The notes: generated by a model from the letters alone, not told the origin. Numbered from the stretch's first letter, positions 31,701 through 50,277 are shown. The stretch: 56,630 nucleotides of DNA from Bacteroidota bacterium (GCA_011042635.1 DQWH01000073.1:1-56630), one strand, 5' to 3'. Numbers and translations: made by a program.

Positions 31701-32032
31701 AACCCGACAATGAAGTAAAATCGGCCAAGTATTTTGACCGGCTTACAAGCTGGAACAACAGCCACTTTGTTGAAGATGCCTCTTATGTAAAATTAAGAGA
31801 GTTATCTCTTAACTATAGTCTGAAAGAGAATATTCTCAAAGGATTCCTTGGTATTGAACGGATCCGTCTGGGTATTGTGGGCAGGAACCTGTTGACCCTC
31901 ACCAAGTATTCCGGTTTTGATCCCGAAACAGGGAAGTCGGAGGAAGGTGTGGATTCCAATGTATTGAAATTTGACCTTTCCAGTTATCCGAATTATGCCA
32001 CCGTTTCCGGGACAATTCAAATCACGTTTTAA
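28709..32032 (+). CDS. susC: SusC/RagA-family TonB-dependent transporter with N-terminal STN signalling domain
   Basis: 1107-aa ORF. It has an STN-like segment (VSFKVEQATMKETLHKIEQSTEFSFFYN) and a CarboxypepD_reg segment (VSGTVCDDQGISLPGVTIRIKGKNIGTTTDPDGYFEI). The plug segment is IESIEVVKGASASSLYGSRAANGVIHIKTKRG, and the protein ends in Phe. Confidence 0.93.
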   Translation: MKKTPNRKGNFIPCSDKNIFRIMKISALLLLVCLLPVSASTYSQTKRVSFKVEQATMKETLHKIEQSTEFSFFYNDNLLVSENKYTLEVEDELITDVLEKLLSGKSLDYVINDKVIVIVPEKNQQTYTQQKLVSGTVCDDQGISLPGVTIRIKGKNIGTTTDPDGYFEIQAEIDDVLIFSFIGMREQEVIIQDYTPLTIVMENDLLRLEEVVVTGVVAQTQRKKLSFTVEKINSDLLQTVPAANLANSLTGKVAGIKISNNAGSPGADADIQLRGATAIFGSSNPLIIIDGILTEGRLSDINSEDIESIEVVKGASASSLYGSRAANGVIHIKTKRGSNLSSGSTEINYRSEFGASYIPFTPEKTTATNFIVSGGAVDYNTPSADGIYDNPYPTLTDPVGQFFNPGSYNTNYLSYSTNSQDGRTSLFGSLHYTDEAGVVKLTDGMQRTNFRINADHWISDKIKVTTSNLYSQSTIDQRAGGIWDLFYYADPDVDLLAPNEEDGSAYNVDPNHNNPRLANPLYLINNSKNFEERTRFLGHYAVQYKPLDYLDFSLAYGIDQISRNSFSLSPKGLLQADRDELTYGSVYKSHNNTTAQTVQVDGFFYKKLGDFLTKAKLQYLYESNEYSYFAGSGTHLAVKGMDVTSLEQASEDINISSYESAIVANNVSGVFNLVYKDKYIFDALIRQDGVSLFGANVRWQTFYRMSGAWRVTEDFRIPGFEELKVRASYGVAGLRPPFESQYETVGLSDGTITSPVAIGNADLKPSFAKETELGLDASFLNRFSFTFNYAHSFNTDQILEVPVSATTGFATQWQNAGKLESHALEASLKANLINSSDWNWDITLLWDRITQKVVELNRPGYAIISGGIFRIEEGQDFGTLYGHKWATSLEEVANQVPEGMAVEDYFTINNQGFVVRTTTIGTVDEEPIKIKDDNGNDKEMVIGSVIPDFNMNLSSFLTYKNLELYMLWGYQQGGETYNHMRRYMMINGVSSELDQTGKPDNEVKSAKYFDRLTSWNNSHFVEDASYVKLRELSLNYSLKENILKGFLGIERIRLGIVGRNLLTLTKYSGFDPETGKSEEGVDSNVLKFDLSSYPNYATVSGTIQITF

Positions 32033-32050: not shown

Positions 32051-33541
32051 ATGAAAAATTTAAAATATATATTCATACTAATCATTGCCATAGGCTTAAC
32101 GCATTGCGATTCGTTTGAAGACCTTGAGGTGCCAAACTACAATAATCCTGACCTTGACCAGGTATATTCCAATGTTGAAGATTACCCGTCATTATTATCG
32201 GGAGCCTACAGTACTTGGTGGAACCATTGCATAGGCACCAATCCTAATTTCGCTCTTGCACCGGCTTCAGAGACCATGAATACGGGTTATGGTTCTTGGG
32301 GGGCCACTCCCTATTACAGGATACCCCGGGAGCCTGTACCAAACCAGGATGGTGACAGGGTGCTTTACCCTACCTGCGGAGGGTGGTTTGGATACTATCA
32401 GGCCATACCCACCGTGAACAACATTCTCAACAAACTGGTAAATGATGGCCTTACTGTAGTAATCGGGGAAGAAGACCATACGACCTCTACCCTTGCACAT
32501 GCTTATTTCCTGCAAGGTATCCTGTACGGGCATTTGGCCTTGCTTTATGATAAGGGTTTCCTGGTTACAGAGAATACCGATATAAGCAGCTTTGATTTTG
32601 AATTCACGGGATACAGCAGCATGATGGATTTTGCCATTTCAAGGATTGAGCAGGCCATACAGATTTGTGAGTCCAATACTTTCACTGATCCTATCGAGAT
32701 GATGCCGGGCAATACTTTCACAAATGAAAGCCTGGGGCGTTTGGCAAATTCATATGCTGCCCGTCTGCTTGCCTACAATGCACGCACAGCAAGTGAGACT
32801 CAGGCTGCAGACTGGGGCAAGATACTGGCCTTCGCACAAAAAGGTATTACCACCGATTTCATGGTTACCAGCCAACCCGGATGGAAGGGGCTTGCTATTG
32901 AACGTGACCCCTACAGCTACCTGGACGTCACACTCTGGGGGTGGACCCGGATACACCAGAGGCTATTGAACATGATGGCCCCTGATGACCCCAACGCAGT
33001 ATATCCATGGCCGTATGGCGTTTCAACGCTTGGTGAAATTAATTCACCTGACACCCGTTTTGATGAATATTTCACCTATAACGCATCGATTCCCTGGGCA
33101 AAATACGCTACCTCAAAAGGGTACCATATAATGTCGCACTACACATTCAACCGGTTCTCCGATCTGTACGACTGGGGCGTGGGCAGCGTACCATTCTTCC
33201 TTACCACTGAAAACGATTTGTTAATCGCCGAGGCCCTTATCCGTACAAATGGAGACAAAGGGATGGCAGCCGGCCTGATTAACAAAACACGGGTGACATC
33301 AGGCAACCTGCCGGCAGCTGATGCATCTGATACAAACCTGATGGAAGAATTATACTATGAGCGTTTTGTTGAATTGCTGATGACCTATCCCCTCTCGGGT
33401 TATTTCGATCGCCGACGTACCGATGTGGAGGGTATGGGCCTGTATGAAGGAACCGTGCGTCACCTGCCAGTACCATATCATGAGTTAGTAATACATAGTT
33501 ATGATATCTATACCTTCGGCGGGGCAGGTAACGAGATGTAA
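32051..33541 (+). CDS. susD: SusD/RagB-family nutrient-binding lipoprotein
   Basis: 496-aa ORF directly after susC. It has a lipobox (IGLTHC) and SusD-like helices, including ENDLLIAEALIR and LYYERFVELL. Confidence 0.88.
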   Translation: MKNLKYIFILIIAIGLTHCDSFEDLEVPNYNNPDLDQVYSNVEDYPSLLSGAYSTWWNHCIGTNPNFALAPASETMNTGYGSWGATPYYRIPREPVPNQDGDRVLYPTCGGWFGYYQAIPTVNNILNKLVNDGLTVVIGEEDHTTSTLAHAYFLQGILYGHLALLYDKGFLVTENTDISSFDFEFTGYSSMMDFAISRIEQAIQICESNTFTDPIEMMPGNTFTNESLGRLANSYAARLLAYNARTASETQAADWGKILAFAQKGITTDFMVTSQPGWKGLAIERDPYSYLDVTLWGWTRIHQRLLNMMAPDDPNAVYPWPYGVSTLGEINSPDTRFDEYFTYNASIPWAKYATSKGYHIMSHYTFNRFSDLYDWGVGSVPFFLTTENDLLIAEALIRTNGDKGMAAGLINKTRVTSGNLPAADASDTNLMEELYYERFVELLMTYPLSGYFDRRRTDVEGMGLYEGTVRHLPVPYHELVIHSYDIYTFGGAGNEM

Positions 33542-33574: not shown

Positions 33575-33958
33575 ATGAAAAAACTCACCTATATAATCTC
33601 AATTGCCCTTATTCTGGGCATTATGGGGTGCGAACGTGGTTATGAGATTGAGACTGTTTCTGAAACAAAGCCTGAATTACATGTATTCGTTCAGGACGAT
33701 TTATCGGTAGCAGTTGCAGGAGCTACAGTAATCATCTACAAGAATGAGGACGATTACAATAACCAGGCAAATGCTTTGGCCAGTAAGTCAACCGATGCAG
33801 AAGGTAAGGCTGTTTTTACCAAGTCGGAACTCAAGGAGCCCGGGATTTTTTATGTCTATGCTTCTGAGGGCAGCCGAACAAATGCCGCCTCCACAATAGC
33901 TACGCCCTACATGTTGCTAAACGACGGTCATACTTTTTTCTATACTGTAATTGAATAG
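33575..33958 (+). CDS. small surface lipoprotein, prealbumin/CarboxypepD_reg-like fold candidate
   Basis: 127-aa ORF with a lipobox (IMGCE). The LHVFVQDDLSVAVAGATVIIYKNEDDY pattern occurs in small beta-sandwich PUL lipoproteins. Confidence 0.6.
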   Translation: MKKLTYIISIALILGIMGCERGYEIETVSETKPELHVFVQDDLSVAVAGATVIIYKNEDDYNNQANALASKSTDAEGKAVFTKSELKEPGIFYVYASEGSRTNAASTIATPYMLLNDGHTFFYTVIE

Positions 33959-34090: not shown

Positions 34091-36061
34091 ATGAAAAGAA
34101 AATTAAGAGACCTGCCTGCAGGCCTGATTGTTCTATTTATCCTGCTTACCACCGGTTCATGTCGTCAGCGCTTACTTCTTTCAGAACTGCTCTCGGGAGG
34201 GTCAATAATCACTGAGAAAGCCAAGATGGTTCAGGTATCAAGCTATGACAAAACAGGAGGGAATAACGACCGCATCAATGTGCATGCAGGGGATACTGCA
34301 GTATTTTTTCAGGCAGAGGGGCCTGGCCTCATAAGCCGAATCTGGATGACGATAGACTCCAGGGATCCTGCTGCACACCGTAGCCTTCTCCTTCAGATTT
34401 TTTGGGACGATGAAACGGACCCTTCGGTAGAAGTGCCCCTGGGTGATTTCTTTGGCTGCGGGTTCGGTTACCAGCACTACTGCGCTCAGTATACTGGTAT
34501 GAGCAGCGGTGGATACTACTGCTATTTCCCAATGCCCTTCAGGAAAAAAGCACGAATGGCGCTTGTCAATCAAAGTACCGAAGAACTATATGCTTTTTAT
34601 TTCCATGTAGACTATTACCGTTTAAACAAAAAGATGCAGGCAAGGACGCCCTATTTTCATGCACACTGGGCCCGGGATATCCGCACTACCTCAGATAAAA
34701 ATTTCACTGCTGTTGAGGCAGAAGGCAAAGGTGTTTTCGTAGGAATGAATTTCAGCGGACAACCATATAACAACAGCCTCTTTTACCTGGAAGGTGATGA
34801 AATGATATATGTTGACCATGAAATAAAACCATCAATACATGGGACAGGTTTTGAAGACTATTTCACCAGTGGGTGGTATTTCAAAAACGGCACCTTCAGT
34901 GCTCCCTACCATGGACTTGTTTTACTTGATGAATCAAATGGCAGAGTAACAGCCTATCGTCACCATATCCCTGATGCCATACCCTTTGAAAAATCTCTTA
35001 AGGTAACTTACGAACATGGTCACGGCAATGAGTCGGTAGCAGATTTCAGCACTACCTGCTATTGGTACCAGGTTGAGCCCCATAAGCCACAGGCGATGCT
35101 CCCTGCCCCTCTCCGAAAACCTTTGTCAAGGCCTGTTGCCCCCCGGGCTATAGATAGCAGGGACCTTAACTGGATGGAAGCAAAAAATATGTATGAGGAA
35201 GACATGACATTATTTGGTCCGGACTGGCTGGGGGGCAGCCAGATGGCCTTCGTGGGAAGCCCTGGAGAACATTTTACCTTAAGCATACCCGAACTTGAAG
35301 AAGACTATTATAACATTACAATATATGCCACCGGAGGCCCGGACTATGGTAAGCTGGAGGTAATATCAAACAATAGTACTATTGCCAGCATTGAAGGCAA
35401 TAAGCCTGAGATTATACCCCTTGAAGCTATTCACCTGAACCACATAGCCAGCAATGACAATGAAATACGGCTTGTATTTAAGTTTACGGGTCCAGCGGAA
35501 ACACAAAAAGCAGGTATTGATGCCATATTGATAGAACCTGTCCGGAATTTCATTACCGACTGGCAATTGATCGGGCCGTTTGATAACCCCAGGGAAAGTG
35601 ACGACCTTAGATATGGACTGGATACGCCTTACCCCCCGGAACGGGAGATTGATTTTTCCGGCTCCTATGATGGGAAAAACGGGCAAGTGCACTGGGAAGG
35701 CTATTCAGGGGATGGGGCTGGATATGCAATGGGTCTTAACAAACGGTATCAACCATCAGAATTCATTATTAGCTATGCCTACACGGGTATATATACCCCG
35801 GAGGATACCAACGTACCCTTGCTCATTGGCAGCGATGACGGTCTGAAAGTATTCCTTAATAAACAAGAGCTTTACCGCTATTTACAGGTAAACATATGTG
35901 CTCCCGACCAGGACACAGTCATGCTGCCTCTGCGGAAGGGCTGGAACGAACTCCTCCTAAAAGCTGAAAACAACTTTGGGGGATATGCCTTTTTTGCCCG
36001 TATCCCGGATGCTCATAGAAAATCCCTGCTAATTAACTCCCATAAAATAAGAAAGAAATGA
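34091..36061 (+). CDS. DUF2961 / GH172-like glycoside hydrolase lipoprotein with ~330-aa C-terminal beta-sandwich extension
   Basis: 656-aa ORF with a lipobox (LTTGSC). The DUF2961-like motifs are VSSYDKTGGNND, ISRIWMTI, LLLQIFWDDETDPSVEVPLGDFFG, GGYYCYFPMPF and TTCYWYQ. The C-terminal WQLIGPFDNP...GSDDGLKVFLNKQELY...LLLKAENNFGGYAFFARI resembles lectin/PA14-like modules. Confidence 0.65.
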   Translation: MKRKLRDLPAGLIVLFILLTTGSCRQRLLLSELLSGGSIITEKAKMVQVSSYDKTGGNNDRINVHAGDTAVFFQAEGPGLISRIWMTIDSRDPAAHRSLLLQIFWDDETDPSVEVPLGDFFGCGFGYQHYCAQYTGMSSGGYYCYFPMPFRKKARMALVNQSTEELYAFYFHVDYYRLNKKMQARTPYFHAHWARDIRTTSDKNFTAVEAEGKGVFVGMNFSGQPYNNSLFYLEGDEMIYVDHEIKPSIHGTGFEDYFTSGWYFKNGTFSAPYHGLVLLDESNGRVTAYRHHIPDAIPFEKSLKVTYEHGHGNESVADFSTTCYWYQVEPHKPQAMLPAPLRKPLSRPVAPRAIDSRDLNWMEAKNMYEEDMTLFGPDWLGGSQMAFVGSPGEHFTLSIPELEEDYYNITIYATGGPDYGKLEVISNNSTIASIEGNKPEIIPLEAIHLNHIASNDNEIRLVFKFTGPAETQKAGIDAILIEPVRNFITDWQLIGPFDNPRESDDLRYGLDTPYPPEREIDFSGSYDGKNGQVHWEGYSGDGAGYAMGLNKRYQPSEFIISYAYTGIYTPEDTNVPLLIGSDDGLKVFLNKQELYRYLQVNICAPDQDTVMLPLRKGWNELLLKAENNFGGYAFFARIPDAHRKSLLINSHKIRKK

Positions 36062-38199
36062 AAAGATTCATCCATCTGTTACTTTTGGCCCTTTTGTTCC
36101 CCAATCTGCCGGGGCAGGAACTGCAACTATCTGATCCCTGGTTGTATGTTAATGCCCGCTCAAACGATCCTTTATATACAACCTATACGGCAAGCATGGA
36201 ACGTTCGAGGATGTATGCCGACAGAGGGTACAAGATGGTTTATGACAATCCGGGGAGGCCCCTTTCCTATACCACCGATCAGGCGGGCAGTATGTATACA
36301 TTATGGCTTGTTAACGATGTAGCAGTATTCAATACCGGCGAATATGATGAAAAACCCGTTGTTACTGTCTCCTTCCCGGATATGTGCATAAGTGAGTACA
36401 AACCATACAACGGGCTCAAAGTGCAGGAAACCTTCCTGGTGTACAGCTCCCGTATAGCTTTGGTGCGACAATATATTACCAATACTTCGGATCGAAGTTT
36501 AAAGATAACCTGCTTCCCGGTATTGGAAATAGGGAACGAAGAAATAGATCTTCAGGAATATAACAGTGAACATGAAGCATACGTAAGCTGCCGCTTCGAA
36601 AGCCGGAAAAGGCTTATCAGCAACATGAATGAAGCTTATCCGGTAGATTTTCGGGAGTGTTTCACAGCCAATTACAAGCCCTATTCATATGGAGCTTACA
36701 AGGGTTCCAATGAAGAATTCTACCAAACAATAAAAACCGATCATTATGCCGAGGACAAGTATAATGACACATTGAACCTGAAAACCCGGGGACGCTTTGA
36801 TTTCCTGGCTTTACAGCATAAGCGGGTACTGGAACCGGGTGAGAGCATCGAATTACGCTACCTCAGGGGTATTGAGACTCTGGATGAAGACCTGGCTGAG
36901 CTGGAAGAAGAAATGGGAAAGCTGAAAGACGAGCCATTACAACCGTACCTTGCGGCTAATGAAAGCCTTTATGAAGGGGTCCCGCGCCTTCAGTTTAAGC
37001 GCGGGGATGACAAAACAATTTATATCAGTGCCCTGAACCTTGCCAGGGGGTGCATGCTGCCCCCGGAGGGTCAAACCTCATTCAACTACTATGCATTTTC
37101 ACGTATGCCATTATGGGGATGGGGCCACGGACACCAGGTCTTACACGAATCATTGAGTATGTTGGCCTATGTATACCTTGATCCCGAATCGGCCCAAAAC
37201 TCCCAACGGGTGTATATCGAACAGCAGGCAGATGACGGATTGATTGCCTACCGTCACGGCCCCAGAGGCCGGCAGGATTACCCGCATCAGGGTGAACCTA
37301 CTACTTCCGCCCCCTTCTTTTCATGGATAAATTGGGAAGTTTACCAGGTAAGCAAAGATCAAAAATTCCTGGAAGAAGCCTATTTATCGGGTTGCAGGTA
37401 TATGGAATGGTTACAGAAAAACCGCGACGATGACCGGGACGGAACCTTCGAATGGGGGCCATACGGTATTATTGAAAATGTAAGAGACTGGTATAACGTG
37501 GTATTCCAGGTTTCAGCCGAAAGATACCTGGATGTGGACAAGGAAGATATTTCCGATGAACTGGAATGCCTGGACCTGTCATTGATGATCGTTAAGGAAA
37601 TGCGTTCACTGGAAGCCATGGCCAGGGAATTGAAGCTGGACCGGCAGGCGGATAAATGGCACCAGCAGGCGGAAAAAACCGCTGCTCTGATCAATGAGAG
37701 GATGTGGGATGAAAAAACAGGTTTCTATTATAATGTTAATGCAAAAGATCATAGTTGGTTCTTTATGGACAGGGACCTCCGACGACAGGAAATTATCGGG
37801 CTTTTGCCCCTTTGGGCGGAGGTGGCTGACGCTAATCAGGCTGAAAAACTTATTGGCCACCTGAGTAATCCCGACAAATTCTGGAGAAAATACGGTATCC
37901 CAACTGTTGCGGCCGACGATGTTTGGTACAGTCCTGATGTAGACTATTGTTGTAAATGGAACGGGCCGGTATGGCTCCTTTGGAATTACATGATCTACGA
38001 CGGACTCAAAAACTATCACCAGGATGAACTGGCACATGAACTGGCACAGAAGATGATCTCTGCCGCTGAAAACCAACTGAGGAAAAACCACAACTTTTGG
38101 GAATCCTTCAGCCCCGACCATGAAACACTCAATAGTCCGTCAAACTATATATGGGATGCCATACTGGCCAAATTGTATATTGAAGAACTGACAAAATAA
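36058..38199 (+). CDS. (alpha/alpha)6 six-hairpin glycosidase, GH63 / MGH1 / trehalase-like
   Basis: 713-aa ORF with a signal peptide and an ATGA overlap with the upstream gene. C-terminal motifs are RDDDRDGTFEWG, YGIPTVAADD, KWNGPVWLLWNYMIYDGLKNY and FWESFSPD. The family call is from recall. Confidence 0.5.
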   Translation: MKRFIHLLLLALLFPNLPGQELQLSDPWLYVNARSNDPLYTTYTASMERSRMYADRGYKMVYDNPGRPLSYTTDQAGSMYTLWLVNDVAVFNTGEYDEKPVVTVSFPDMCISEYKPYNGLKVQETFLVYSSRIALVRQYITNTSDRSLKITCFPVLEIGNEEIDLQEYNSEHEAYVSCRFESRKRLISNMNEAYPVDFRECFTANYKPYSYGAYKGSNEEFYQTIKTDHYAEDKYNDTLNLKTRGRFDFLALQHKRVLEPGESIELRYLRGIETLDEDLAELEEEMGKLKDEPLQPYLAANESLYEGVPRLQFKRGDDKTIYISALNLARGCMLPPEGQTSFNYYAFSRMPLWGWGHGHQVLHESLSMLAYVYLDPESAQNSQRVYIEQQADDGLIAYRHGPRGRQDYPHQGEPTTSAPFFSWINWEVYQVSKDQKFLEEAYLSGCRYMEWLQKNRDDDRDGTFEWGPYGIIENVRDWYNVVFQVSAERYLDVDKEDISDELECLDLSLMIVKEMRSLEAMARELKLDRQADKWHQQAEKTAALINERMWDEKTGFYYNVNAKDHSWFFMDRDLRRQEIIGLLPLWAEVADANQAEKLIGHLSNPDKFWRKYGIPTVAADDVWYSPDVDYCCKWNGPVWLLWNYMIYDGLKNYHQDELAHELAQKMISAAENQLRKNHNFWESFSPDHETLNSPSNYIWDAILAKLYIEELTK

Positions 38200-38205
38200 T
38201 GGGAC

Positions 38206-41040
38206 ATGACAAAGATATCAGTAACTCTTACCTTACTTATTCTGATGCTGACAGGTCTTAAGGCACAAACCCAAGGGCAAGGGCATCATATTGACATCAG
38301 CGAACAGAATCTTTCAATAACGGGAATAAGTTACCAGGGAAATCACTACGGGATGACCGCTATACCTCTTATAAGTTTTCGCATAGACAATAAACTGGTT
38401 ATGGGGTCAATGTGTGAAAGAGAAGCAACACAGGATAGTGTTTCTTACATCTGGGACCAAAAATTACGGATAAGCTACGAGCGTTTCACTGAATATGCTC
38501 CTGCAGAGGGTCTCAGAATCTACTTTCTGAATATCAGTCAGGATACGCTCGATATAACCAACGTAGTACCCTTTGGGGAGGAACCCTCCAGAATGTACAT
38601 CACTGGTAAAGGTGAGCATTATCTTTCCAGGACACATCTGTTTCGCCCTGGCTATAATCCGGTAAATGTTATTGTACCCGATAATGCCTGGGAATTAGGA
38701 TTTAGCGAAATTCAGTTCAAGGAAGGCCATAGCCTGGCTGCCTTATGCCGGCGGGAATCTTCTTCTGCTGCGCATCGCCACCGGTTTTCCACTACCCTCT
38801 ATCCCGGCGGGTGGGTTAGTTACCGTTTATGGAGTGAACCCTATACCGGGGCCTGGCAGGAAGGGATACGTAAGATTTTCCAGGAGCGTTATCTATACGA
38901 TGTATTGCCGGGAGCATTTGACAATTCCCTTTTTGAAAGACCCGACCTGCAATGGATCCGTCATACATATGCCAACACTTCCATAATGGCCTGGGACAAT
39001 TATTATTATGACTGTGCTGATGATTCATTCAATCTGCTGGGTTTTGAGGAATACTGCAGGGAGCTGTATGGAGGCAATGATTTCATTGCTCTTTGGCCCA
39101 CCTGGCCAACACTGGGCGTTGACCAGCGCAACCAGTGGGACTTATACCGCAGTTTACCCGGGGGCATGGAAAAAATACGCTCCCTGGCTGAGGGGCTCCA
39201 AAATTCCGGCAGCCGTCTGTTCATATGCTATAATCCCTGGGACCAGAGCACCAGGGATGAGGAACATGCCAGGGGTATGGCCTCCATTATTAAGGCTACA
39301 AAGGCCGACGGGGTGGTCCTGGATACCCGAGGAGAATCAAGTTATGAACTGCAACATGCTGCCGACAGTGTCAGACCCGGCGTAGTAATGTACTCTGAAG
39401 GTATGGCTGTCCCTGAAAACATGCAGGGAATTGTGTCCGGAAGGGTACATAATGCCTTGTATTACTGCCCCATGTTAAACCTGAATAAATTTATCAAGCC
39501 CGAATTTGCAATATTTCGTGTTGCTGAATTGTTTAGGGAACCTATCCGCAGGGAATATAACCTTAGCTTTTTTAACGGGTACGGTACCGAAATGAACTTA
39601 TTTCACCCCGGGAAACCCGACTGGGCAGAAGAGCAATACCTTTACTGGGGCAAGATACTCAGGATACAGCGTGAGAATACCCATAATTTCGTAAGCCGTG
39701 ATTATATACCTCTTATCCCTACACGCAGGGACAGTATTTTTGTGAATTACTGGCCGGGGGAAACAAAAACAATCTACACCATTTACAGCCTTATTCCCGG
39801 GGGGTATAACGACCTGCTGTTCGAAGTCCAGCCCAAGGAAGGGTATCATTTTGTCGACATATGGCACCACACCGAACTGGAACCGGTAAAGGAAGGAGGG
39901 AAATGGTATATTCATGCAAAAACAAATGCATTCAATTCTTTCGAACTGGGTACTAACAATGAAGGTTCCGTTGACTGCATTGCAGGTTTTCCTGCCTTAT
40001 TGAAGGTTAGCCGGGAGGGTGATTTTCTCAGCCTAAGCTGTTCTGAAGGGGACTGTATTAAAATATGGGCAGGAGAACCTTCCTACAACAAGGAACCCCT
40101 GATACTAAACCCGGGAGATCATGAAATCAGGATCCATGAACATTTTGGCCGTTACGAGGGGAAACTGGTTGTTCAGGCTTTCGAAGAGGACATCCTGCTT
40201 GATGAAAGAATACAAACACTGCCAACGGCTGAGGCCCGTTTGATAAGCGAAAAGGTGCAAACATCTCCTGCACGCAGATGCCCAAAGGGAATGGTGCGCA
40301 TCCCGGAAGGGAACTTTACTTTTCACCAGACTCATGGCGACGACTTTATCCCGTATCCAGAGTATCAGGAAGGGAAAACATATAAAATGGGACCTTATTA
40401 TATGGATATTCATCCGGTAACTAATGCAGAATTCCTGGAATTCATCAGGGACAGTGGTTACCAACCCAGTGACTCTAGTCGTTTTCTGGAACATTGGGTA
40501 CAAGGTGCTATCCCTGATGGCCTTGAGGACTATCCGGTAGTATATGTCAGTCTGGAGGATGCCCGGGCTTATGCAAAATGGGCCGGGAAACGGCTGCCCA
40601 CAGAACTGGAATGGCAATATGCAGCGCAGACCGGAGAGCTTAATCCCTGGCCATGGAAACAAAAAGAACCTGTAACAAGAAAAAACACTCCCGTTACCGC
40701 TACATTAACCGTAATGGAAATAGAAGGTATAGACTCCTGCCGTTGTAACCTGGGAACCGGAGTGCCCGATCCTGTGGGGAAATACCCTGAAGGCAGAAAT
40801 CCGTTTGGGCTGGAGGACCTGGTGGGTTCAGTATGGCAGCTTACCAATGATGTGTACCATAACGGTAGTTACCGCTACATTCTTATGAAAGGCGGTAGTT
40901 ATTATAAACCTACTTCCAGCTGGTGGTATGTGCAGGGAGGCCCCAGGGAACTAACATACCGGCAATACTTACTCAGGGTTTCACAGGGTTTTGAGAGAAA
41001 TGCCACCGTGGGCTTCCGATGTGTTAAAGATGCCCGATAG
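38206..41040 (+). CDS. secreted fusion protein: ~650-aa uncharacterised N-terminal region plus C-terminal FGE/SUMF1-fold domain lacking the catalytic Cys pair
   Basis: 944-aa ORF with a signal peptide. The C-terminus has MVRIPEGNFTF...MDIHPVTNAEFLEFI...YPVVYVSLEDARAYAKWAGKRLPTELEWQYAA...NPFGLEDLVGSVWQLTND...MKGGSYY...GFRCVKD. There is no Cys between GGSYY and GFRC. Confidence 0.7.
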   Translation: MTKISVTLTLLILMLTGLKAQTQGQGHHIDISEQNLSITGISYQGNHYGMTAIPLISFRIDNKLVMGSMCEREATQDSVSYIWDQKLRISYERFTEYAPAEGLRIYFLNISQDTLDITNVVPFGEEPSRMYITGKGEHYLSRTHLFRPGYNPVNVIVPDNAWELGFSEIQFKEGHSLAALCRRESSSAAHRHRFSTTLYPGGWVSYRLWSEPYTGAWQEGIRKIFQERYLYDVLPGAFDNSLFERPDLQWIRHTYANTSIMAWDNYYYDCADDSFNLLGFEEYCRELYGGNDFIALWPTWPTLGVDQRNQWDLYRSLPGGMEKIRSLAEGLQNSGSRLFICYNPWDQSTRDEEHARGMASIIKATKADGVVLDTRGESSYELQHAADSVRPGVVMYSEGMAVPENMQGIVSGRVHNALYYCPMLNLNKFIKPEFAIFRVAELFREPIRREYNLSFFNGYGTEMNLFHPGKPDWAEEQYLYWGKILRIQRENTHNFVSRDYIPLIPTRRDSIFVNYWPGETKTIYTIYSLIPGGYNDLLFEVQPKEGYHFVDIWHHTELEPVKEGGKWYIHAKTNAFNSFELGTNNEGSVDCIAGFPALLKVSREGDFLSLSCSEGDCIKIWAGEPSYNKEPLILNPGDHEIRIHEHFGRYEGKLVVQAFEEDILLDERIQTLPTAEARLISEKVQTSPARRCPKGMVRIPEGNFTFHQTHGDDFIPYPEYQEGKTYKMGPYYMDIHPVTNAEFLEFIRDSGYQPSDSSRFLEHWVQGAIPDGLEDYPVVYVSLEDARAYAKWAGKRLPTELEWQYAAQTGELNPWPWKQKEPVTRKNTPVTATLTVMEIEGIDSCRCNLGTGVPDPVGKYPEGRNPFGLEDLVGSVWQLTNDVYHNGSYRYILMKGGSYYKPTSSWWYVQGGPRELTYRQYLLRVSQGFERNATVGFRCVKDAR

Positions 41041-41064
41041 ACTCATCCTTAAAAATATTGTGTA

Positions 41065-44000
41065 ATGAAAAACGCATTCTTGTTGTTATTATGCATACTT
41101 TGTTTTTCGTCCTGTACTAAACATGAGCAGAAACCCGATATCCTGGTCCTTACAGAACAAAAACCCTCTGTCGGAGAAACAGAAGCCATGAAAAAAGCCC
41201 TGTCTCCTGAGTGCAGGTTTATTAAGCTGGTTTCTTTGCAACAACTGAAAGAGGATCCTGATTTACTGAATGCCTATGATATTCTATGGTACCACAGGCA
41301 TGATTCTTCCGATATTTATCCTGAGGAAGAAAGACTCGGGGAACCCGTTTCGAAATGGGTTTCAGAAGGTGGAAAACTGGTGCTGAGCCTTGACGCTGTA
41401 AGGTTACTCAATGCCTGGGCAATTGAACCCAGCCCCATTGAACCCAGTACCTTTATGGTTGTTGACCAGGGTTTTGGGCGTAAAAGGGGCTTCCATGCCT
41501 ACCATCAGCACCCCTTATTTTCAGGTTTACACGGAGGAGCTTATATATGGAATCCCAATTCAGACCAATATTGCCGCACCCTGGGTTTCCGTAAAGGAGT
41601 TCTCCCTGCAGCAAAGGGGAGTAAGGTTATTGGTATCGACTGGGCGTATATCACATATCACGAGGATGACAAATTGGTATGGCAAACACCTGTTGGAAAA
41701 GGGACTGTCCTGGCTATTGGTGGTTACATGCATTTTGCCGATGATAACCGGAACCAGCCACATCTGGAACGGTTCACACAAAACTGTATTTCTTACCTTG
41801 TATCCGGTGATTCGGAAGAGGAAGGATGCTACTGGGACTATTCGCCCCTGGAAATATGCAACGACCTTAAACTCCCTGAAGGGGAAAAACCGCCTGTGGC
41901 TACCCTTTGGCAATGGCCTGAAGCCTCATTATCCATTGGCCATACTTGTCCGGAAGGAAGGGTACCATACGATTTATCAGGGAACCAGCTTACCTTAATG
42001 GGAAACGAAAGTGGTGGCATTGAAGAGTTCTGGAGTCATCCGTTTATGGCTTTCAGGGATATCCACACCGCTGTAATCATGCCTGAGGGAGAGTCACCGG
42101 TATGGCTGAACCAGTGTAAGCCGGAGGTTAAAAAGAGTCCGGGACGTATGATGCGAACTTATACTATTAAGGATTTGCAGCTGCAGGAAATAATTGTTGT
42201 TGATTATAAATCTGCATCAGCAGTGGTTCATTATCAATGGTCGTCCGGCAATGATTTCAAACTTCAGGTCACTTCGGCCAGTAATTTACGTCAGATGTGG
42301 CCGTATTCACAGCGGTCAACCGGGAGCCTTCATTATGCCTGGTCGGGATCAATGCAGGCAATGGCTGTTGTAAACACCGACAAAAGGTATGCCTCTTTCA
42401 TAGGATTTTCGCAAAAGCCCGCTTCGCATACCGAGGGGCAGTATCTAAAACCTGAACCCGGTAAATACACCAGCCGGCTGAAACCTTCCGCAGACCATCT
42501 TGTCAGAGGCCTTTGGGAGTTCCCTTGCCCCAAGGAGGGAGCACTGGATATTTACCTGGTCACAGGTATGTCTGGGCCCGAAAAACTGATAAGCGATTAT
42601 GAAAGACTGACAGAAAACCCGGAATCACTGCTTGATGCATGTGAAGCAAATTACAGGCAGGAACGTGCTCTGCAGCCTGAGATAATAAGCCCCGACACCT
42701 TGTTTAACGAAGGGTTCCGCTGGGCGCAGACATCCGACCACGAATTCTTTATAAAAACAGAAGGCATTGGCCTTTCTTTAATGGCAGGTTATGCAACCTC
42801 CAACCATGGCTGGGACGGGAACCAGAAGATTAGTGGCCGGCCGGGGTACGGATGGTATTTCGGCCGAGACGCTGCCTGGAGCGGCATGGCACTGCTCAGG
42901 GATGGTAACTATGAAAAAGTACGTGACATCCTTTTAACAATGGGAAAATACCAGGATATTACCGGTAAAATATACCACGAATTAACTACAACAGGATCTG
43001 TCCATTATGATGCTTCAGATGCGACTCCCCTGTATGTTGTCCTGGCAGGTTTATACCTGGAAACCACCGGTGATATGGAATTTATCACGAGCCAGTGGCC
43101 CCATATCAGGAAAGCCATGGATTTCTGTTACAGTACCGATACCGATGATGACGGGCTCATTGAAAATACAATGGTTGGCCACGGATGGATTGAAGGTGGA
43201 GCACTCCTGGGGGCCAAAACTTCGTTTTACCTGGCAGCTCTATGGACAGAGTGCCTGTATCAGGCCTCATTCCTGGCAAATGCAACAGGGAATAAGGAAC
43301 TTTCACGCAAATACGGGACCGATGCCGCGAGGGTTCAGGCCATCCTTAACCGGGACTACTGGAGCGAAGAGTACAACTACTTTTATTTCGGAAAGTTCCC
43401 CGACAACACCTACCGGAGTGTAAAGACAGTATTCCCTGCCATCCCGGTATTCTGGGGCCTTCTTGATGAGGACAAAGCAGGGATAGTGGCCGCCTTATTA
43501 TCTTCGAATGAATTCACAACTGAATGGGGAGTACGGATCCTGTCAAGCAAAAACCCGCTGTTTAACCCATCCGGCTATCATTACGGAAGCATTTACCCGC
43601 TCTTCACGGGCTGGTCTTCTCTGGCACAATACAAAACTGGAAGACCTGTCCAGGGTTTCAGCCAGTTGTACGGAAGCCTGCAAAACTACATGCACTGGAA
43701 TATGGGACATATAGAAGAAGTATTACACGGGCAGAACTATGTCCCTTCAGGGGTATGTTCACACCAGTGCTGGTCGGAATCAATGGTTGTACTACCGGTC
43801 CTGGAGGGTATGATGGGCTTAAGGGCAAACCCGGCACAAAATAGTCTTCAGTTAAGCCCGGCAATACCCTTCAACTGGGACAGCCTTAAGGTAAATAACA
43901 TACGCTTTGGAAACGAACGTATAAATTATTCATTTCACCGGGCAAACGGAAAAATTCACATCCGTATGTCCACCACCTCCGGTCGGGAGGTGTTCATAAA

Positions 44001-44451
44001 TTATAGGCATTACCTGCCGGCGGGTACAAGCGTTGAGTCGGTAATGCTTAACAACAAACCTTTTGACTGGGAATTGGCAGAGGGAGACCCTTATCCCCTG
44101 TTCTGCACCAGGATACCCTTGAATCCCAATGGTATTACAGAGCTTGTAATAGGATATGACGGCGGCATTGGAGCAGTGCCGCCAAAATTCATGGCTGAAA
44201 TATCCAAACCTACCGGACACAGTAGAATTATTTGCGAAAAATTCCAGGAAAATGAGTACACATTGTATACAGAAGGAGAATCAGGCCAGAGCCACTTCTT
44301 CTATTTATATGCAGAAAATAAACCGGATACAGTTATAGGAGCATCCATTAGCTGTTTGGGGAACAAAATGTACCTGTTGCAGGCCCAATATCCTGAGGAC
44401 GTACCTTCTGAGAACATACAGACGAAGAAGATCGTACTTAAAACACGATGA
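41065..44451 (+). CDS. large lipoprotein with C-terminal GDE_C-like (amylo-alpha-1,6-glucosidase type) six-hairpin domain
   Basis: 1128-aa ORF with a lipobox (FSSCT). It has GWYFGRDAAWSGMALL, HYDASDATPLYVVLAGLYLETTGDMEFI and DDDGLIEN..VGHGWIEGG. The N-terminal ~550 aa is unassigned; its first ~200 aa has a possibly GATase/ThuA-like flavour. Confidence 0.55.
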   Translation: MKNAFLLLLCILCFSSCTKHEQKPDILVLTEQKPSVGETEAMKKALSPECRFIKLVSLQQLKEDPDLLNAYDILWYHRHDSSDIYPEEERLGEPVSKWVSEGGKLVLSLDAVRLLNAWAIEPSPIEPSTFMVVDQGFGRKRGFHAYHQHPLFSGLHGGAYIWNPNSDQYCRTLGFRKGVLPAAKGSKVIGIDWAYITYHEDDKLVWQTPVGKGTVLAIGGYMHFADDNRNQPHLERFTQNCISYLVSGDSEEEGCYWDYSPLEICNDLKLPEGEKPPVATLWQWPEASLSIGHTCPEGRVPYDLSGNQLTLMGNESGGIEEFWSHPFMAFRDIHTAVIMPEGESPVWLNQCKPEVKKSPGRMMRTYTIKDLQLQEIIVVDYKSASAVVHYQWSSGNDFKLQVTSASNLRQMWPYSQRSTGSLHYAWSGSMQAMAVVNTDKRYASFIGFSQKPASHTEGQYLKPEPGKYTSRLKPSADHLVRGLWEFPCPKEGALDIYLVTGMSGPEKLISDYERLTENPESLLDACEANYRQERALQPEIISPDTLFNEGFRWAQTSDHEFFIKTEGIGLSLMAGYATSNHGWDGNQKISGRPGYGWYFGRDAAWSGMALLRDGNYEKVRDILLTMGKYQDITGKIYHELTTTGSVHYDASDATPLYVVLAGLYLETTGDMEFITSQWPHIRKAMDFCYSTDTDDDGLIENTMVGHGWIEGGALLGAKTSFYLAALWTECLYQASFLANATGNKELSRKYGTDAARVQAILNRDYWSEEYNYFYFGKFPDNTYRSVKTVFPAIPVFWGLLDEDKAGIVAALLSSNEFTTEWGVRILSSKNPLFNPSGYHYGSIYPLFTGWSSLAQYKTGRPVQGFSQLYGSLQNYMHWNMGHIEEVLHGQNYVPSGVCSHQCWSESMVVLPVLEGMMGLRANPAQNSLQLSPAIPFNWDSLKVNNIRFGNERINYSFHRANGKIHIRMSTTSGREVFINYRHYLPAGTSVESVMLNNKPFDWELAEGDPYPLFCTRIPLNPNGITELVIGYDGGIGAVPPKFMAEISKPTGHSRIICEKFQENEYTLYTEGESGQSHFFYLYAENKPDTVIGASISCLGNKMYLLQAQYPEDVPSENIQTKKIVLKTR

Positions 44452-44509
44452 ATTGAGATCTAAAAATAAAGCACTGAAATTTAACTCCTTATTGGTTAAA
44501 AAGAGAATA

Positions 44510-44551
44510 GGTTTAGTTTAGGTTTGGTTTGGTTAGGTTAGGTTAGGTTGG
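44510..44551. repeat. Degenerate tandem penta/hexanucleotide repeat (GGTTW)n, 8 units
   Basis: GGTTTA GTTTA GGTTT GGTTT GGTTA GGTTA GGTTA GGTTG, read directly from the sequence. Confidence 0.9.
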
Positions 44552-44574
44552 AGAGGGCCCCCGGGGGGGATCAT

Positions 44575-44606
44575 GAAAGGAAAACGCAAAATTGTGTTTT
44601 CCTTTC
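44575..44606. other. Perfect 11-bp hairpin (GAAAGGAAAAC / GTTTTCCTTTC, 10-nt loop)
   Basis: Read directly. It lies 124 nt after the last PUL gene, in the junk sequence that replaces the 3' end of IS3 orfB. It is a possible terminator (followed by TTCGTTTG). Confidence 0.5.
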
Positions 44607-44622
44607 TTCGTTTGTAAACTGT

Positions 44623-45336
44623 ATCCCAGCAGTTCCCTTTCCGGCTCATGCTGCGTTTAACCAGTACATATCCCTCAAGAAGGGTCCTGAATTCATTACA
44701 GGCATACTGTGCCCCCCGATCTGAATGAAAGACCAGATCCCGAACAATCGGGCGGTTGTTAACAGACATGAACCAAGCTGGAATCACCGTATTCACAGCC
44801 TTCAATGACCGGCTTATGGACCATCCAACGACTTTCCGGTCCCAGAGGTCAATGATCACTGTAAGATACAGCCAGCCCTGATAAGTTCTTATATAGTTCA
44901 GATCTGAAACCCAAACCTGCCCGGGGCCGGTTACCATGAAATTGCGATTGAGCAAATTGCCAACAACCGGATAGTTGTGCTTGGAATCAGTGCTCACAAC
45001 GAACTTCTTCCTGACAACACTTCTAAGACCCTCTTTCCTCATAATGGCCGCAACCCGGTTTTTCGAGACCCGGAACCCCAGTTTCTTCAACCTCGTGGCG
45101 ATCCGGGGACTACCATAAGTCTTTTTACTCTTGAAAAAGATTTCTCGGATCATACGGGTATGCCGCTCGTTTTCCAATCCCCTTTTACCCGGTTTATGGT
45201 TTAACCAACTTTAATATGCACTTCTGCTTACTTTCAGCATTTTACACATCTTCTCAATGGGAAATATTGTGCAATGATCCTTCATGAATTGGAATATTTG
45301 CCATCGCTCCTGGAGAAAATGCTCACCGCTTTTTTT
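44623..45336 (-). pseudogene. IS3-family transposase OrfB, with a nonsense codon and 3' truncation
   Basis: The -1 frame after the A7G site reads ..[28 protein letters not shown].. (TAA at 45211-45213). It continues ..YGSPRIATRLKK...VWVSDLNYIRT...FHSDRGAQYACNEF...MSRKGNCWD and then turns to unrelated sequence. Confidence 0.8.
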
Positions 45337-45593
45337 AATATATCCCTCTCCATCTGAGTGTCACGAAGCTCTTTCTTCAACTTGGCTATCTCTTTCTGTT
45401 CTTCTGTTTGCTTTGGGTTGCCATGGCCAGGGAAAGCCCCTCCCCGGACTTGTTGGGCCTCTCTTCTCCACCTATACAAAAGATCTGGCTTAATATCCAA
45501 CTCCTCAGCCAATTTGCAGATATCTTCTCGATGACGACTAAGTTCAACAGCCATCTTTTTAAATTCTTGATCGTACTTTCTTCTTGTTTTCAT
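45282..45593 (-). CDS. IS3-family transposase OrfA (HTH)
   Basis: 103-aa [22 protein letters not shown]...LLYRWRRE...[18 protein letters not shown]. This is a classic OrfA with a leucine-zipper-like tail. Confidence 0.85.
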
Positions 45594-45686
45594 AGGACCA
45601 AAAGTTAAGATTTATTTGCTTAACTCTCTGTCCGGTTTTTTAGGGCAATATCACCTTATGAAAGCAAGCTTTCAACGGACAGTAGT

Positions 45687-45725: not shown

Positions 45726-45796
45726 AGGTCGGTAGCGGATTCGAACCGCTGTAACTGGTTTTGCAGACCAGCGCCTAACCACTCGGCAAACCGACC
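45726..45796 (-). tRNA. tRNA-Cys (anticodon GCA)
   Basis: I folded it by hand. The sequence is GGTCGGTTTGCCGAGTGGTTAGGCGCTGGTCTGCAAAACCAGTTACAGCGGTTCGAATCCGCTACCGACCT. The acceptor stem is 7 bp, the anticodon stem is CTGGT/ACCAG with loop CTGCAAA, and the T-arm is AGCGG-TTCGAAT-CCGCT. No CCA is encoded. Confidence 0.9.
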
Positions 45797-45946: not shown

Positions 45947-47158
45947 TCATTTGTCCCCGAATCTTTGCAAAATCTCCAGGCACATCCGGCTGTTGTGGTA
46001 AGGGCATTTCCAGAATCCGGCCTTGTCGTTGTCGGTGTTTACCCTTCCGTCGGCCCGGATGCTCCAGTACCACTCCCCGTTCTTTCTGTCTGCCAGATGG
46101 TTTGTGATATAGCTAAAACAACGGTCTGCCTTCTCAAGGTATTCTTTCCTGCCGGTCAGCTGCCAGGCATGGATCAACCCTACTACCGCTTCGGCCTGAA
46201 CCCACCAGTGACGGTCCCTGTCGGTGCGTCCTGTTGCCTCATCTGTTTCATAAATCATACTGCCGTCTTCCTGGAATCCTTCCAGGGCTGCATCCACCAT
46301 TTTTACCGAAATGTTTGACACCCGGTCTATAAGCGACCTGTCCTCCAGCACCTGTGCGGTTTCGTATAGCAACCAGGCTGCTTCGATATCATGCCCGTAG
46401 GAGACCAGTTGTGACCTGCTATTCCAGAATTCATCGAAAAACAACCGGAGGTGAAAAGTGACCGGATGAATGATTTTTTCCAGAAAACTATGTAGTAAAC
46501 TACGAAGTTGATTACGCAAATACCTGTCGGGACACGCCCTGGCCAGCATAGTATATGCCTCCAATACATGAAGGTTGGTATTGGTGGTTTTTTTCTCATT
46601 TTGATCTTTTTCGCTCAGCCGGAGATCCTCCAGCTCTATCCATTCACGGCTGAAAGCTTCCAGGTAACCTCCGTATTGTCTGTCAAGGCTGTGTTCTTCC
46701 AGCAGATCATACAGTTCCACGGCTCTTTTCCTGGCGTTTTCATTCCCTGCGGTAATGAAATGCTGGCTCAGGGCATAAATAAAGAAAGCCTGCGCATACA
46801 CCTGTTTTTTTGTTTCCAGGGGAATGCTGTTACTGTTCAGACTCCACCACACGCCACCGTATTCCTCATCGAAAAAATACCTGTTGACATACTCCCATGC
46901 CCTGGTGGCTGTTTCCAGGTAAGATGGGATCCCCAGTATATAATGGGCTGAAGAAAAGGTCCACAGAATGCGGGCGTTCAGTACAGCTCCTTTCGGGGCA
47001 GCGGGGTGAACTGTGTTTTTTCCGTCAATCCGGCCGTAAAAGCCTCCCTGTTTCCGGTCGGACATGCGTTCTATCCAGAAAGGGAGGATGTTTTCCGTCA
47101 GTTCCTTCCGGGCATTTTCCTTTAACCGCTGTATGATGTCTTCTTCGGAACGGCTCAT
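45947..47158 (-). CDS. AGE-family epimerase, cellobiose 2-epimerase-like
   Basis: 403-aa [23 protein letters not shown]...[16 protein letters not shown] and later (alpha/alpha)6 repeats match N-acylglucosamine 2-epimerase / cellobiose 2-epimerase. It is operon-linked to the GH130 gene by an ATGA overlap. Confidence 0.75.
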
Positions 47159-49476: not shown

Positions 49477-49497
49477 CTATGGCTTATTGAATGATTT

Positions 49498-50277
49498 TTA
49501 AAAGTTTCCGGTTGTCACCAGGTGGTTGGGATCCGTTTCTTTGATCAGGGCAGCTACTTCCCTGGTCCATTTTTCAAAGGCAGGGATGCTTTCCCTGGAA
49601 AAAGCACGGGGCTCATTACCGATCTCCCAGGTCATGATCACCGGATCTTCGGTGTATTTCATGCCGGTATACCGGTTAGTGCGCCCGAGAATGAATTTTA
49701 TATGTTCCTTGAATTGCCGGAGGCAGTTTTCGCAATGGTGAAACCGGCCTGCATAGCTCATGAATTCCTGCCATGTATGAGGTTTCACTGAAGGATAGGG
49801 GATGGGCCCGTATCCGTTCCAGTTAAGGTACTGGGCATACCCACCCGACCAGTCCCAGCTGTTGTTCAGGTACAGAACAGCTACCTGTCCCCGTTTTTTC
49901 ATTTTGGCCAGAAGAAAATCGAGTCCGTCAAGCAGCTCTTCTTTGTAAACCCCCGGTACGAGCTGCAGGGCGGGTGTTACACGAAAAGGTTCCCCGTCAG
50001 GACCCTCGGCGCCCACCAGGATGCGAAGATTGTTCACCCCGATTTGTTTCAGATGATCAAGCTCCCTGATCAGCCTTTCCCGGTTTCCGTATTTCCCGGA
50101 CGAGCCAAGAATTCCTCCGTACCAGTAATTAGTCCTTATGAAATAATAAGGCTGGCCGTTCTTCATGAATGTACTGTGCTGCACGGTAACGTATTTATCC
50201 GAATGAGCCGGCTGGCCGGTAATATGACCGGGAATCAAAGCCAGCAACAGGAAAGTGGTTAGCAAGCTGTATTTCAA
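49498..50277 (-). pseudogene. GH5 beta-mannanase-like gene truncated after the acid/base region (259 aa)
   Basis: It has a signal peptide, LYLNNSWDWSGGYAQY and MTWEIGNEPR (acid/base Glu). It ends ..DPNHLVTTGNF*, 21 nt before the GH26 start. The part that should carry the nucleophile Glu is absent. Confidence 0.55.

Follow-up and report, generated by a model that had tools for sequence, protein, structure and literature searches.

Bacteroidota turn over complex carbohydrates mainly by way of polysaccharide utilisation loci (PULs), and newly decoded PULs usually reveal new families of enzymes as well as a new flux of glycans. One family with a very small set of known activities is glycoside hydrolase (GH) family 172. 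All GH172 enzymes known to act on polymers are exo-alpha-D-arabinofuranosidases, and in the corresponding D-arabinan loci, PUL42 of Dysgonomonas gadei and a gene cluster of Microbacterium arabinogalactanolyticum, GH172 is accompanied by a six-hairpin exo-enzyme (PMC10115798, PMC10509167), with SusC/SusD-type uptake in the case of PUL42. In alphaFFase1 of Bifidobacterium dentium (PDB 7v1v), a further member of the family, E270 acts as the acid/base and E291 as the nucleophile (PMC10941961). The subject of the present analysis is a stretch of 56,630 nucleotides from a Bacteroidota bacterium (GCA_011042635.1, DQWH01000073.1:1-56630), referred to below as the window, in which four enzyme genes, P1 to P4 (34091-44451), follow a set of sensor and transport genes. 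The locus is probably a functional SusC/SusD PUL under the trans-envelope control of an extracytoplasmic function (ECF) sigma factor and an anti-sigma factor, in which the four co-transcribed genes would provide a periplasmic cascade of exo-glycosidases for an undescribed glycan. The PUL is of a well known kind, and its enzyme content matches no PUL described in the open literature searched. As with the D-arabinan loci, it combines a GH172 protein with a six-hairpin enzyme and, as with PUL42, with SusC/SusD-type uptake. It differs from them in that GH183 is lacking, that P4 is GDE_C-like and not a member of GH116 subfamily 4, that a GH63-like enzyme and P3 are present in addition, and that P1 falls into a different, longer GH172 subfamily.

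The four genes lie on the forward strand. P1 (34091-36061, 656 amino acids), the predicted GH172 lipoprotein, overlaps by 4 nt with P2 (36058-38199, 713 amino acids), a GH63/MGH1-like (alpha/alpha)6 enzyme with an N-terminal beta-sandwich. A gap of 6 nt then leads to P3 (38206-41040, 944 amino acids), in which an N-terminal unannotated region is followed by a C-terminal domain with the fold of formylglycine-generating enzyme (FGE), and a gap of 24 nt to P4 (41065-44451, 1128 amino acids), a GDE_C-like lipoprotein. As read in the translations, the N-termini contain lipoboxes in P1 (...LLTTGSC) and P4 (...CFSSC), a cleavable signal peptide in P2, and a signal peptide that ends ...LKAQ in P3. An earlier, sequence-only reading of this DNA had described a packed group of four genes with an ATGA overlap and the same two gaps, each product bearing a signal peptide or lipobox, and had assigned it a dedicated ECF/anti-sigma/STN-SusC sensor. 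The open reading frames (ORFs) and all four translations agree with the first two statements, and the sensor genes are indeed found directly upstream, the STN extension lying just under its Pfam cut-off.

These upstream genes, again on the forward strand, begin with an ECF-type sigma factor (26951-27529; Sigma70_r2, r4_2 and ECF matches) and a FecR-type anti-sigma factor (27584-28600; FecR and FecR_C matches). They are followed by a SusC-like TonB-dependent transporter (28709-32032; TIGR04056 at 576 bits, SusC signature, Plug), the N-terminal STN-like signalling extension of which scores 25.2 bits (E 1.4e-5), slightly below the Pfam cut-off of 28.4. Next come a SusD-like lipoprotein (32051-33541; weak SusD-like_3 match) and a 127-amino-acid Ig-like lipoprotein (33575-33958; faint Big_1 and bMG3 matches). 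The locus thus has what is expected of a PUL, namely neighbouring susC and susD homologues with four glycosidase-type genes in the same orientation; of the elements of a PUL regulator, the sigma and anti-sigma factors are clear and the extension is carried by SusC. In Bacteroidota the export signal of surface lipoproteins consists of acidic residues after the lipid cysteine. In this regard, the SusD-like lipoprotein is probably surface-exposed, judging from the acidic residues that follow its lipid cysteine (CDSFED), and the corresponding residues of P1 (CRQR) and P4 (CTKH) contain no acidic surface-export motif. More than 20 independent metagenome contigs carry the identical locus, which is therefore not an assembly artefact. 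Scans of the locus for promoters and terminators gave background levels only.

P1 is assigned as a GH172 retaining furanosidase that keeps both catalytic glutamates. Its Pfam match to DUF2961/GH172 has an E value of 2.4e-76 (256.8 bits against a cut-off of 27), and its matches in the PDB (4kq7, 7v1v, 8ah3 and 8ic8) range in E value from 5.7e-54 to 8e-30, with BACUNI_00161 (4kq7) at 5.7e-54, alphaFFase1 at 1.3e-52, DgGH172c of D. gadei at 8.5e-49 and the Microbacterium exo-alpha-D-arabinofuranosidase at 8.3e-30. Alignment with alphaFFase1 places E270 on E234 of P1 (in LEGDEM) and E291 on E255 (in GTGFEDYF). The GH172 domain and both glutamates are thus common to P1, alphaFFase1 and BACUNI_00161. 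P1 differs from the other two proteins in being a lipoprotein and in extending beyond its catalytic domain (approximately residues 44-330) by a further, uncharacterised C-terminal region of about 320 amino acids; conversely, the C-terminal helix region of alphaFFase1 has no counterpart in the P1 alignment, and the genomic context of P1 is unrelated to fructan use. The extra C-terminal region is shared by a populous subfamily of proteins of about 655 amino acids, 48-59% identical, from Bacteroidota, Balneolaceae, Calditrichia and Ignavibacteriales, and no member of this subfamily bears a functional name.

GH63/MGH1-like six-hairpin enzymes are typically inverting alpha-glucosidases or alpha-mannosidases. 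P2 is predicted to be an enzyme of this type, far removed from the characterised members, and it is presumably periplasmic. In Pfam it matches MGH1-like_GH (1.1e-44, 153.9 bits), Trehalase (4.9e-12) and Glyco_hydro_63 (7e-10, 38.7 bits against a cut-off of 22.4), and it spans the whole MGH1-like catalytic domain of such enzymes as YgjK of Escherichia coli and TTHA0978 of Thermus. What sets it apart from the YgjK type is its remoteness, since the comparison with YgjK gives an E value of only 1e-9 and the YgjK equivalog only 95 bits against a cut-off of 625. Orthologues of P2 that are 57-59% identical occur in three of the related loci discussed below (L088, L091 and L092).

P4, the largest of the four proteins, is best modelled as a GDE_C-type six-hairpin (alpha/alpha)6 lipoprotein. 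Pfam places GDE_C on residues 593-908 (E 4.5e-12, 46 bits against a cut-off of 21), together with a match to DUF608 (GH116) that covers only about 100 residues (2e-7, 30.9 bits against 26.3) and further weak matches to MGH1-like and DUF4960. In the AlphaFold2 (AF2) model (predicted local distance difference test score, pLDDT, 87; predicted template modelling score, pTM, 0.90), residues 25-246 form an alpha/beta N-domain, residues 290-500 a beta-sandwich and residues 505-920 a GDE_C-like (alpha/alpha)6 barrel, after which come C-terminal beta-sandwiches. The best match, both by sequence (5.8e-13) and in Foldseek (template modelling score, TM, 0.74; 18% identity), is the archaeal amylo-alpha-1,6-glucosidase 7vma, with GH94, GH63, GH116 (TxGH116, TM 0.5), GH15 and GH121 at lower scores. 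The beta-sandwich plus (alpha/alpha)6 architecture is common to P4, 7vma and TxGH116. P4 is nonetheless nearly double the length of 7vma, adding the alpha/beta N-domain and the C-terminal beta-sandwiches, and, unlike the archaeal enzyme, it is a lipoprotein within a PUL. The full-length family measures about 1130 amino acids, with identities of 35-43%, and many of its members are labelled 'GH116 family' by NCBI. An assignment of P4 itself to GH116 is not favoured over GDE_C, given TM scores of 0.5 and 0.74, respectively. The sequence-only reading had named P1 as DUF2961/GH172-like, P2 as GH63/MGH1-like and P4 as a giant GDE_C-like lipoprotein; for all three the profile matches are in accord, as are the PDB matches of P1 and, for P4, the lipobox and the fold of 7vma.

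P3 differs from the other three in that most of its length has no annotation. The recognisable part is the C-terminal FGE/SUMF-fold domain (40285-41040, forward strand), to which the FGE-sulfatase match is confined (residues 694-941, E 2e-38, 133 bits), and which is matched structurally by 6muj, 2q17 and 1y1e (Foldseek TM about 0.5). The catalytic cysteine pair is absent from this domain: C336 and C341, which bind copper in human FGE, correspond to T917 and L922 of P3, and the sole invariant cysteine, C939, belongs to a structural GFRC motif. Since the catalytic cysteines are replaced, P3 is not a formylglycine-generating enzyme. The best PDB match of the domain is SUMF2, which is non-catalytic, and the cysteine pair is missing from SUMF2, PorK and P3 alike; what distinguishes P3 from FGE, SUMF2 and PorK/GldK is the joining of this fold to a glycosidase-like region of 690 amino acids. 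Moreover, among 64 neighbour ORFs scanned at related loci no more than 2 matched Pfam Sulfatase, which, together with this fusion, argues that P3 is no sulfatase maturase. An FGE, EgtB or PvdO-type enzyme was likewise rejected, on the lack of the cysteine pair and on NCBIfam equivalog scores far below cut-off. The 'FGE-fold fusion' of the sequence-only reading is therefore right as to the fold, and is in need of revision in that the protein consists mainly of the 690-residue unannotated region and that the FGE site is catalytically dead.

The N-terminal region of P3 (about 690 amino acids, 38206-40280, forward strand) is called glycosidase-like here from its AF2 model, its Foldseek neighbours and its invariant acidic residues. 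Pfam returned nothing for it in 23 family members at E<=10, and the PDB nothing with either a single sequence or a profile. In the model an N-terminal beta-sandwich is followed by a strand-helix barrel (approximately 257-500), more beta-sandwiches and the FGE fold. The structure prediction and Foldseek comparison that the sequence-only reading had suggested as a check were run on both P3 and P4, and where P4 gave a six-hairpin fold, P3 gave a low-TM resemblance to GH97 (the alpha-galactosidase BT1871 at 4.5e-10, and a beta-L-arabinopyranosidase), GH101 endo-alpha-GalNAc-ases, GH129 and GH36. With these families P3 would, on this moderate model, have in common the order of domains (N-terminal beta-sandwich, beta/alpha barrel, C-terminal beta-sandwiches) and a conserved aspartate after barrel strand 4; by sequence it stands outside them, any similarity being undetectable in Pfam or PDB profiles. 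The aspartate in question would be D373 (in ADGxxLDT), which directly follows the predicted strand 369-372. Together with D346 (in NPWD) and E398 it is invariant in 23 close relatives, among which D368 is a consensus residue only, and all four positions are conserved across 45 relatives of 25-40% identity. The P3 core is represented by 1172 clusters at 50% identity; an FGE domain is also present in 27 of the 45 distant members, and a Pfam catalytic domain in none of the 45. The assignment as a glycosidase accordingly draws on fold resemblance and conserved acidic residues, the model being only moderate, and on this basis P3 would be a new barrel-type glycosidase with the FGE-fold module as its binding domain.

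The genes also recur in other genomes. Relatives of P3 were found in 551 GTDB species genomes, and the ORFs of 80 fetched loci were clustered; the taxon-named loci among these are all from Bacteroidota. The commonest neighbour of P3 is a GH127-like protein (39 of the 80 loci, contiguous and on the same strand in 34), followed by a GH63-like protein (15-18), GH172 (11), P4 (11) and a beta-helix/PA14 protein (7-8), with a mutarotase also among the neighbours. Orthologues of the SusC, SusD and small lipoprotein of the window appear in 10-13 of the 80 loci, and the orthologous trio accompanies the module in 11. The SusC orthologues (47-60% identical) adjoin P3-family genes, SusD homologues (38-59%) sit beside SusC in 10 related loci and in L088, and the 127-amino-acid lipoprotein is 32-51% identical across about 100% of its length in the same number of related loci, and 43% identical in L088. 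Overall, at least 90 loci show parts of the module in changing combinations with GH127, mutarotase, galK/galT and amino-acid transporters. Given this recurrence, the genes of the window are one version of a modular set of tools that many genomes have in common. As a conserved and mobile module, the gene set belongs to bacteria of the Fibrobacterota-Chlorobiota-Bacteroidota (FCB) group; it is spread over Bacteroidota, Balneolaceae and Calditrichota, and is common in Bacteroidota and their relatives from soil, freshwater, sediment and marine habitats.

The closest analogues are instructive as to what a fuller version of the locus may contain. In L092, a metagenome-assembled genome of Balneolaceae, the proteins are 55% (GH172 to P1), 58% (GH63-like to P2), 56% (P3) and 41% (P4) identical to those of the window, and the order of the window is kept within a longer run: long GH63-like gene, GH172, GH63-like, P3, P4, mutarotase, sodium:solute symporter (SSS), galK, galT. 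L088, from Aureibacter tunicatorum, starts with SusC (1107 amino acids), SusD (495), a 138-amino-acid lipoprotein and a long GH63-like gene, and continues with GH172 (653), GH63-like (716), P4 (1127) and a mutarotase, lengths that nearly match those of the window. Farther downstream, at a distance of 3-8 kb from the P4 homologue, are genes for an L-fucose/D-arabinose isomerase, an FGGY kinase and an MFS transporter. In L091, positions 10001-15517 encode P0193, a natural fusion of P4 with a GH63/trehalase-like protein (1838 amino acids), with a GH63-like gene, GH172 and P3 as neighbours; in Rosetta-stone fashion, P0193 links the two six-hairpin enzymes of the module. L014 and L033 hold the module set plus GH127. 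In L093 (Calditrichota) and L094 the module is found without SusC/SusD, beside permease, ABC, SSS and galK genes, and in L093 an amino-acid permease lies inside it. Minimal PULs, as in L027 and L034, consist of SusC, SusD, P3, GH127, an amino-acid permease and a Cys/Met pyridoxal phosphate (PLP) enzyme. A mutarotase recurs in 6 loci and galK/galT/SSS in 4, galK being near a P1-type GH172 in L014, L092, L094 and L095.

Some further features of these loci may be recorded. A longer, FGE-ended paralogue of P3 (about 1035 amino acids) lies directly upstream of a P3 of about 940 amino acids in L007 (7883-10987), L013 (7874-10990) and L087 (3781-6882). In L017 a GH172-P3-GH127 PUL lies between URO-D-family proteins (4654-5736 and 19836-20678), one of which has a Tat-like signal, and a recurrent protein of about 360-400 amino acids with no Pfam match (cluster 15) precedes GH172 in 6-8 loci.

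From the above, a course of events at the locus may be proposed. SusC/SusD and the 127-amino-acid lipoprotein would capture and import an oligosaccharide or glycoconjugate, the binding of which would be signalled through the STN extension to the anti-sigma/sigma pair. P1 would remove alpha-linked D-arabino-configured furanose caps, and P2 and P4 alpha-linked hexoses by inversion. P3 would act as a barrel-type retaining glycosidase, with D373 (strand 4) as nucleophile and E398 as acid/base, and would remove a further residue, possibly alpha-Gal- or beta-L-Ara-like to judge from its structural neighbours, its FGE-fold module serving as a binding domain. Since genes for a mutarotase and SSS, with galK and galT, follow directly in related loci, galactose is a likely end product. 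No surface endo-acting enzyme is encoded in the locus, which makes the target more likely an oligosaccharide or glycoconjugate than a large polymer; in combination with the lack of an acidic export motif in P1 and P4, it also makes breakdown probably periplasmic and exo-acting. Our best guesses at the substrate are fragments of microbial envelope glycans that contain D-arabinofuranose and galactose, or a glycopeptide.

Several findings weigh against this proposal. No characterised enzyme is more than about 30% identical to any of the four proteins. The AF2 model of P3 is moderate (pLDDT 66, pTM 0.47) and poor at residues 398-476, and its Foldseek E values of 4.5e-10 to 1e-7 come with TM scores of only 0.15-0.21. 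Comparison of the P3 profile by hhalign with single GH97, GH27 and GH31 sequences was insignificant, D373 being placed at the KID of the GH97 sequence with a probability of only 1.6%. The linkage to Leloir genes is found in only four loci and is perhaps partly chance adjacency. P3, P4 and GH127 also occur singly among housekeeping genes, as does the P3-GH127 pair, and hence the proteins need not always cooperate. Finally, the locus in the window is without GH127, the long GH63-like paralogue, an adjacent mutarotase and galK/galT. A search of the window for homologues of GH127, galK, galT, fucI, FGGY, the beta-helix protein and cluster 15 found none, and the only mutarotase (15511-16644), which is 46% identical to the module-linked one of L092, is unlinked, 18 kb away among housekeeping genes. 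With these partners absent and an insertion sequence (IS) directly after the last gene, the locus may be incomplete, having lost downstream partners relative to its closest analogues.

Of the other substrates that can be considered, the one that fares best is a Mycobacteriales-type cell-wall glycan, the locus then being a variant D-arabinan/arabinogalactan locus, in which GH172 would act on alpha-D-arabinofuranose and P4, as a GH116-like enzyme, on beta-D-arabinofuranose caps, with the GH63-like enzyme trimming mannan or glucan and galactan galactose entering the Leloir pathway. We regard this as unlikely. It has in its favour that a six-hairpin partner alongside GH172 fits, as does the exo-alpha-D-arabinofuranosidase activity of all known polymer-active GH172 enzymes (PMC10115798, PMC10509167), and that galK/galT are linked in related loci. 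P1, however, falls into a subfamily without a characterised member. The 'GH116 family' labels on P4 homologues and the DUF608 score of 30.9 bits would suit the proposed role of P4, which is nevertheless nearer in structure to GDE_C than to GH116. In L088 the isomerase, the FGGY kinase and the MFS transporter downstream of the P4 homologue would fit the use of D-arabinose and recall the D-arabinan loci, although they are found in that one locus only, beyond a sigma gene on the opposite strand, and could be an ordinary fucose operon. The GH183/DUF4185 endo-arabinanase is absent at the window locus, where every ORF is otherwise assigned, and GH183 is not among the families listed in the related-locus neighbour scans, of which the broad one lists 25 of 82 families. 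P3 and GH127 are also given no role. Membership in the known D-arabinan PULs was accordingly rejected, neither GH183 nor a linked isomerase/kinase being present at the window locus.

The second alternative is a glycopeptide or glyco-amino-acid target, such as the hydroxyproline-rich glycoproteins of plants or algae or the O-glycoproteins of bacteria. Here P3 would be a peptide-directed glycosidase in the manner of GH101/GH129, the FGE fold would grip the peptide, GH127 in the relatives would remove beta-L-arabinofuranose, and the freed amino acids and peptides would be imported. GH101 and GH129 cleave sugar-Ser/Thr links, and in true FGEs the fold binds unfolded peptide. The structural neighbours of P3 (GH101/GH129, and the alpha-galactosidase and beta-L-arabinopyranosidase of GH97) are consistent with such a role, and the peptide-binding nature of true FGEs lends the module a purpose, even though peptide binding by P3 is pure inference. 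The rank of GH127 as commonest neighbour of P3 points the same way, as do the amino-acid permease and Cys/Met PLP enzyme of the minimal PULs, the permease within the L093 module, a POT peptide transporter that lies close to P3-GH127 in loci of Prolixibacteraceae and a PNGase-F-like gene that adjoins P3 in L016; mutarotase and galK/galT would suit D-Gal or L-Ara as products. Yet the transporter links possibly reflect lineage-specific synteny, and the window locus itself has neither GH127 nor amino-acid transporters. Moreover, no alpha-L-arabinofuranosidase (GH43/GH51) or peptidase is linked, and the role of GH172 goes unexplained, such that we consider a target of this kind rather improbable.

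An alpha-D-fructofuranoside, such as the difructose dianhydrides (DFAs) from inulin or levan, is a most improbable substrate, for although P1 resembles alphaFFase1, weak matches to PF16324 (levan-binding surface glycan-binding protein) occur in the N-domain of P4, as in that of many homologues, and the right-handed beta-helix/PA14 proteins of 7-8 related loci recall the beta-helical DFA-forming GH91 enzymes (PMC10941961), the PF16324 match is sub-threshold, the beta-helix protein is absent from the window and its PDB sequence search was empty, GH32 beta-fructofuranosidase is not among the families listed in the neighbour scans, and the galactose genes are left unexplained.

Returning to the proposed exo-glycosidase cascade, the sequence-only reading had stated that its enzymes belong to no mainstream family and fit no described substrate. 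Indeed, no hidden Markov model places the proteins in a characterised subfamily, the NCBIfam equivalogs all score far below cut-off on P1 to P4, and the gene set recurs elsewhere, though in no case in a PUL whose substrate is known. The open literature searched does not describe the combination of P1 to P4, nor was GH172 found there together with GH63, GH127 or an FGE domain. All four enzymes appear to come from uncharacterised lineages, the N-terminal domain of P3 being without a family in Pfam and PDB sequence searches. There is a realistic chance that the module holds a new glycoside hydrolase family. A bolder proposition, which we put forward only tentatively, is that the N-terminal 690 amino acids of P3 found a new family, thousands of proteins strong, whose members are in most cases joined to an FGE-fold module that lacks the cysteines and was co-opted for binding of the substrate, possibly a peptide, and that this family defines, together with GH127, GH172 and two uncharacterised six-hairpin families, an undescribed, widespread and horizontally mobile pathway of the FCB group for furanoside-decorated glycans or glycopeptides. 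Decoding the module could bring a further glycoside hydrolase family to light, assign a role to thousands of proteins now annotated as 'formylglycine-generating enzyme family protein' and widen the repertoire of GH172. Cultured carriers exist, among them Pontibacter mangrovi HB172049, Aureibacter tunicatorum, Flavobacterium granuli, Pedobacter borealis and Flavisolibacter ginsengisoli DSM 18119, which makes the module directly testable.

As for the setting of the PUL in this genome, the GC content is 0.41-0.48 across approximately 24-46 kb, against 0.49-0.55 outside. The 2.3 kb immediately before the sigma factor gene (24600-26950, GC about 0.41) contain no long ORF; the short ORFs there resemble a decayed C-terminus of an rve-type integrase, pieces of a helix-turn-helix (HTH) transposase and a tyrosine-recombinase 'LLGH...' motif. 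At the other end, directly after P4, lies an IS3-family element on the reverse strand (44533-45653; HTH_21 plus rve, and HTH_Tnp_1), with orfB at 44533-45177 (214 amino acids), orfA at 45282-45593 (103 amino acids) and a right edge near 45653; its terminal inverted repeats were looked for and not found. A pentanucleotide repeat (TAGGT, eight copies) with a G/C run occupies 44508-44549, between the P4 stop and the IS. A tRNA gene (45726-45796, reverse strand; 63 bits, the only Rfam match) separates the IS3 element from the mannan genes that follow. A tRNA gene is a typical island boundary, and with decayed mobile genes at one end and IS3 plus a tRNA gene at the other, the PUL has the appearance of an acquired island. 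The contig L001 is 99.97% identical to the window up to 45653, after which CobA and GH97 genes replace the tRNA and mannan genes; this divergence makes the IS3 element a point of strain-level rearrangement.

Beyond the tRNA gene, and on the same reverse strand, a beta-mannan-type cluster (45947-51516) encodes an N-acylglucosamine-2-epimerase-family enzyme, GH130, GH26 and a GH5-like mannosidase, with a divergent AraC regulator beside it. It is followed by a GH2 gene, also on the reverse strand (51953-53914), that is split into ORFs of 282 and 292 amino acids with the C-terminal and N-terminal GH2 domains, respectively, and is probably a frameshift or pseudogene. On the upstream side, 10-18 kb before the PUL (15511-23814), an aldose 1-epimerase, a GH27 alpha-galactosidase, a DeoC-type aldolase and a DUF5916/CBM9 protein are found among housekeeping genes.

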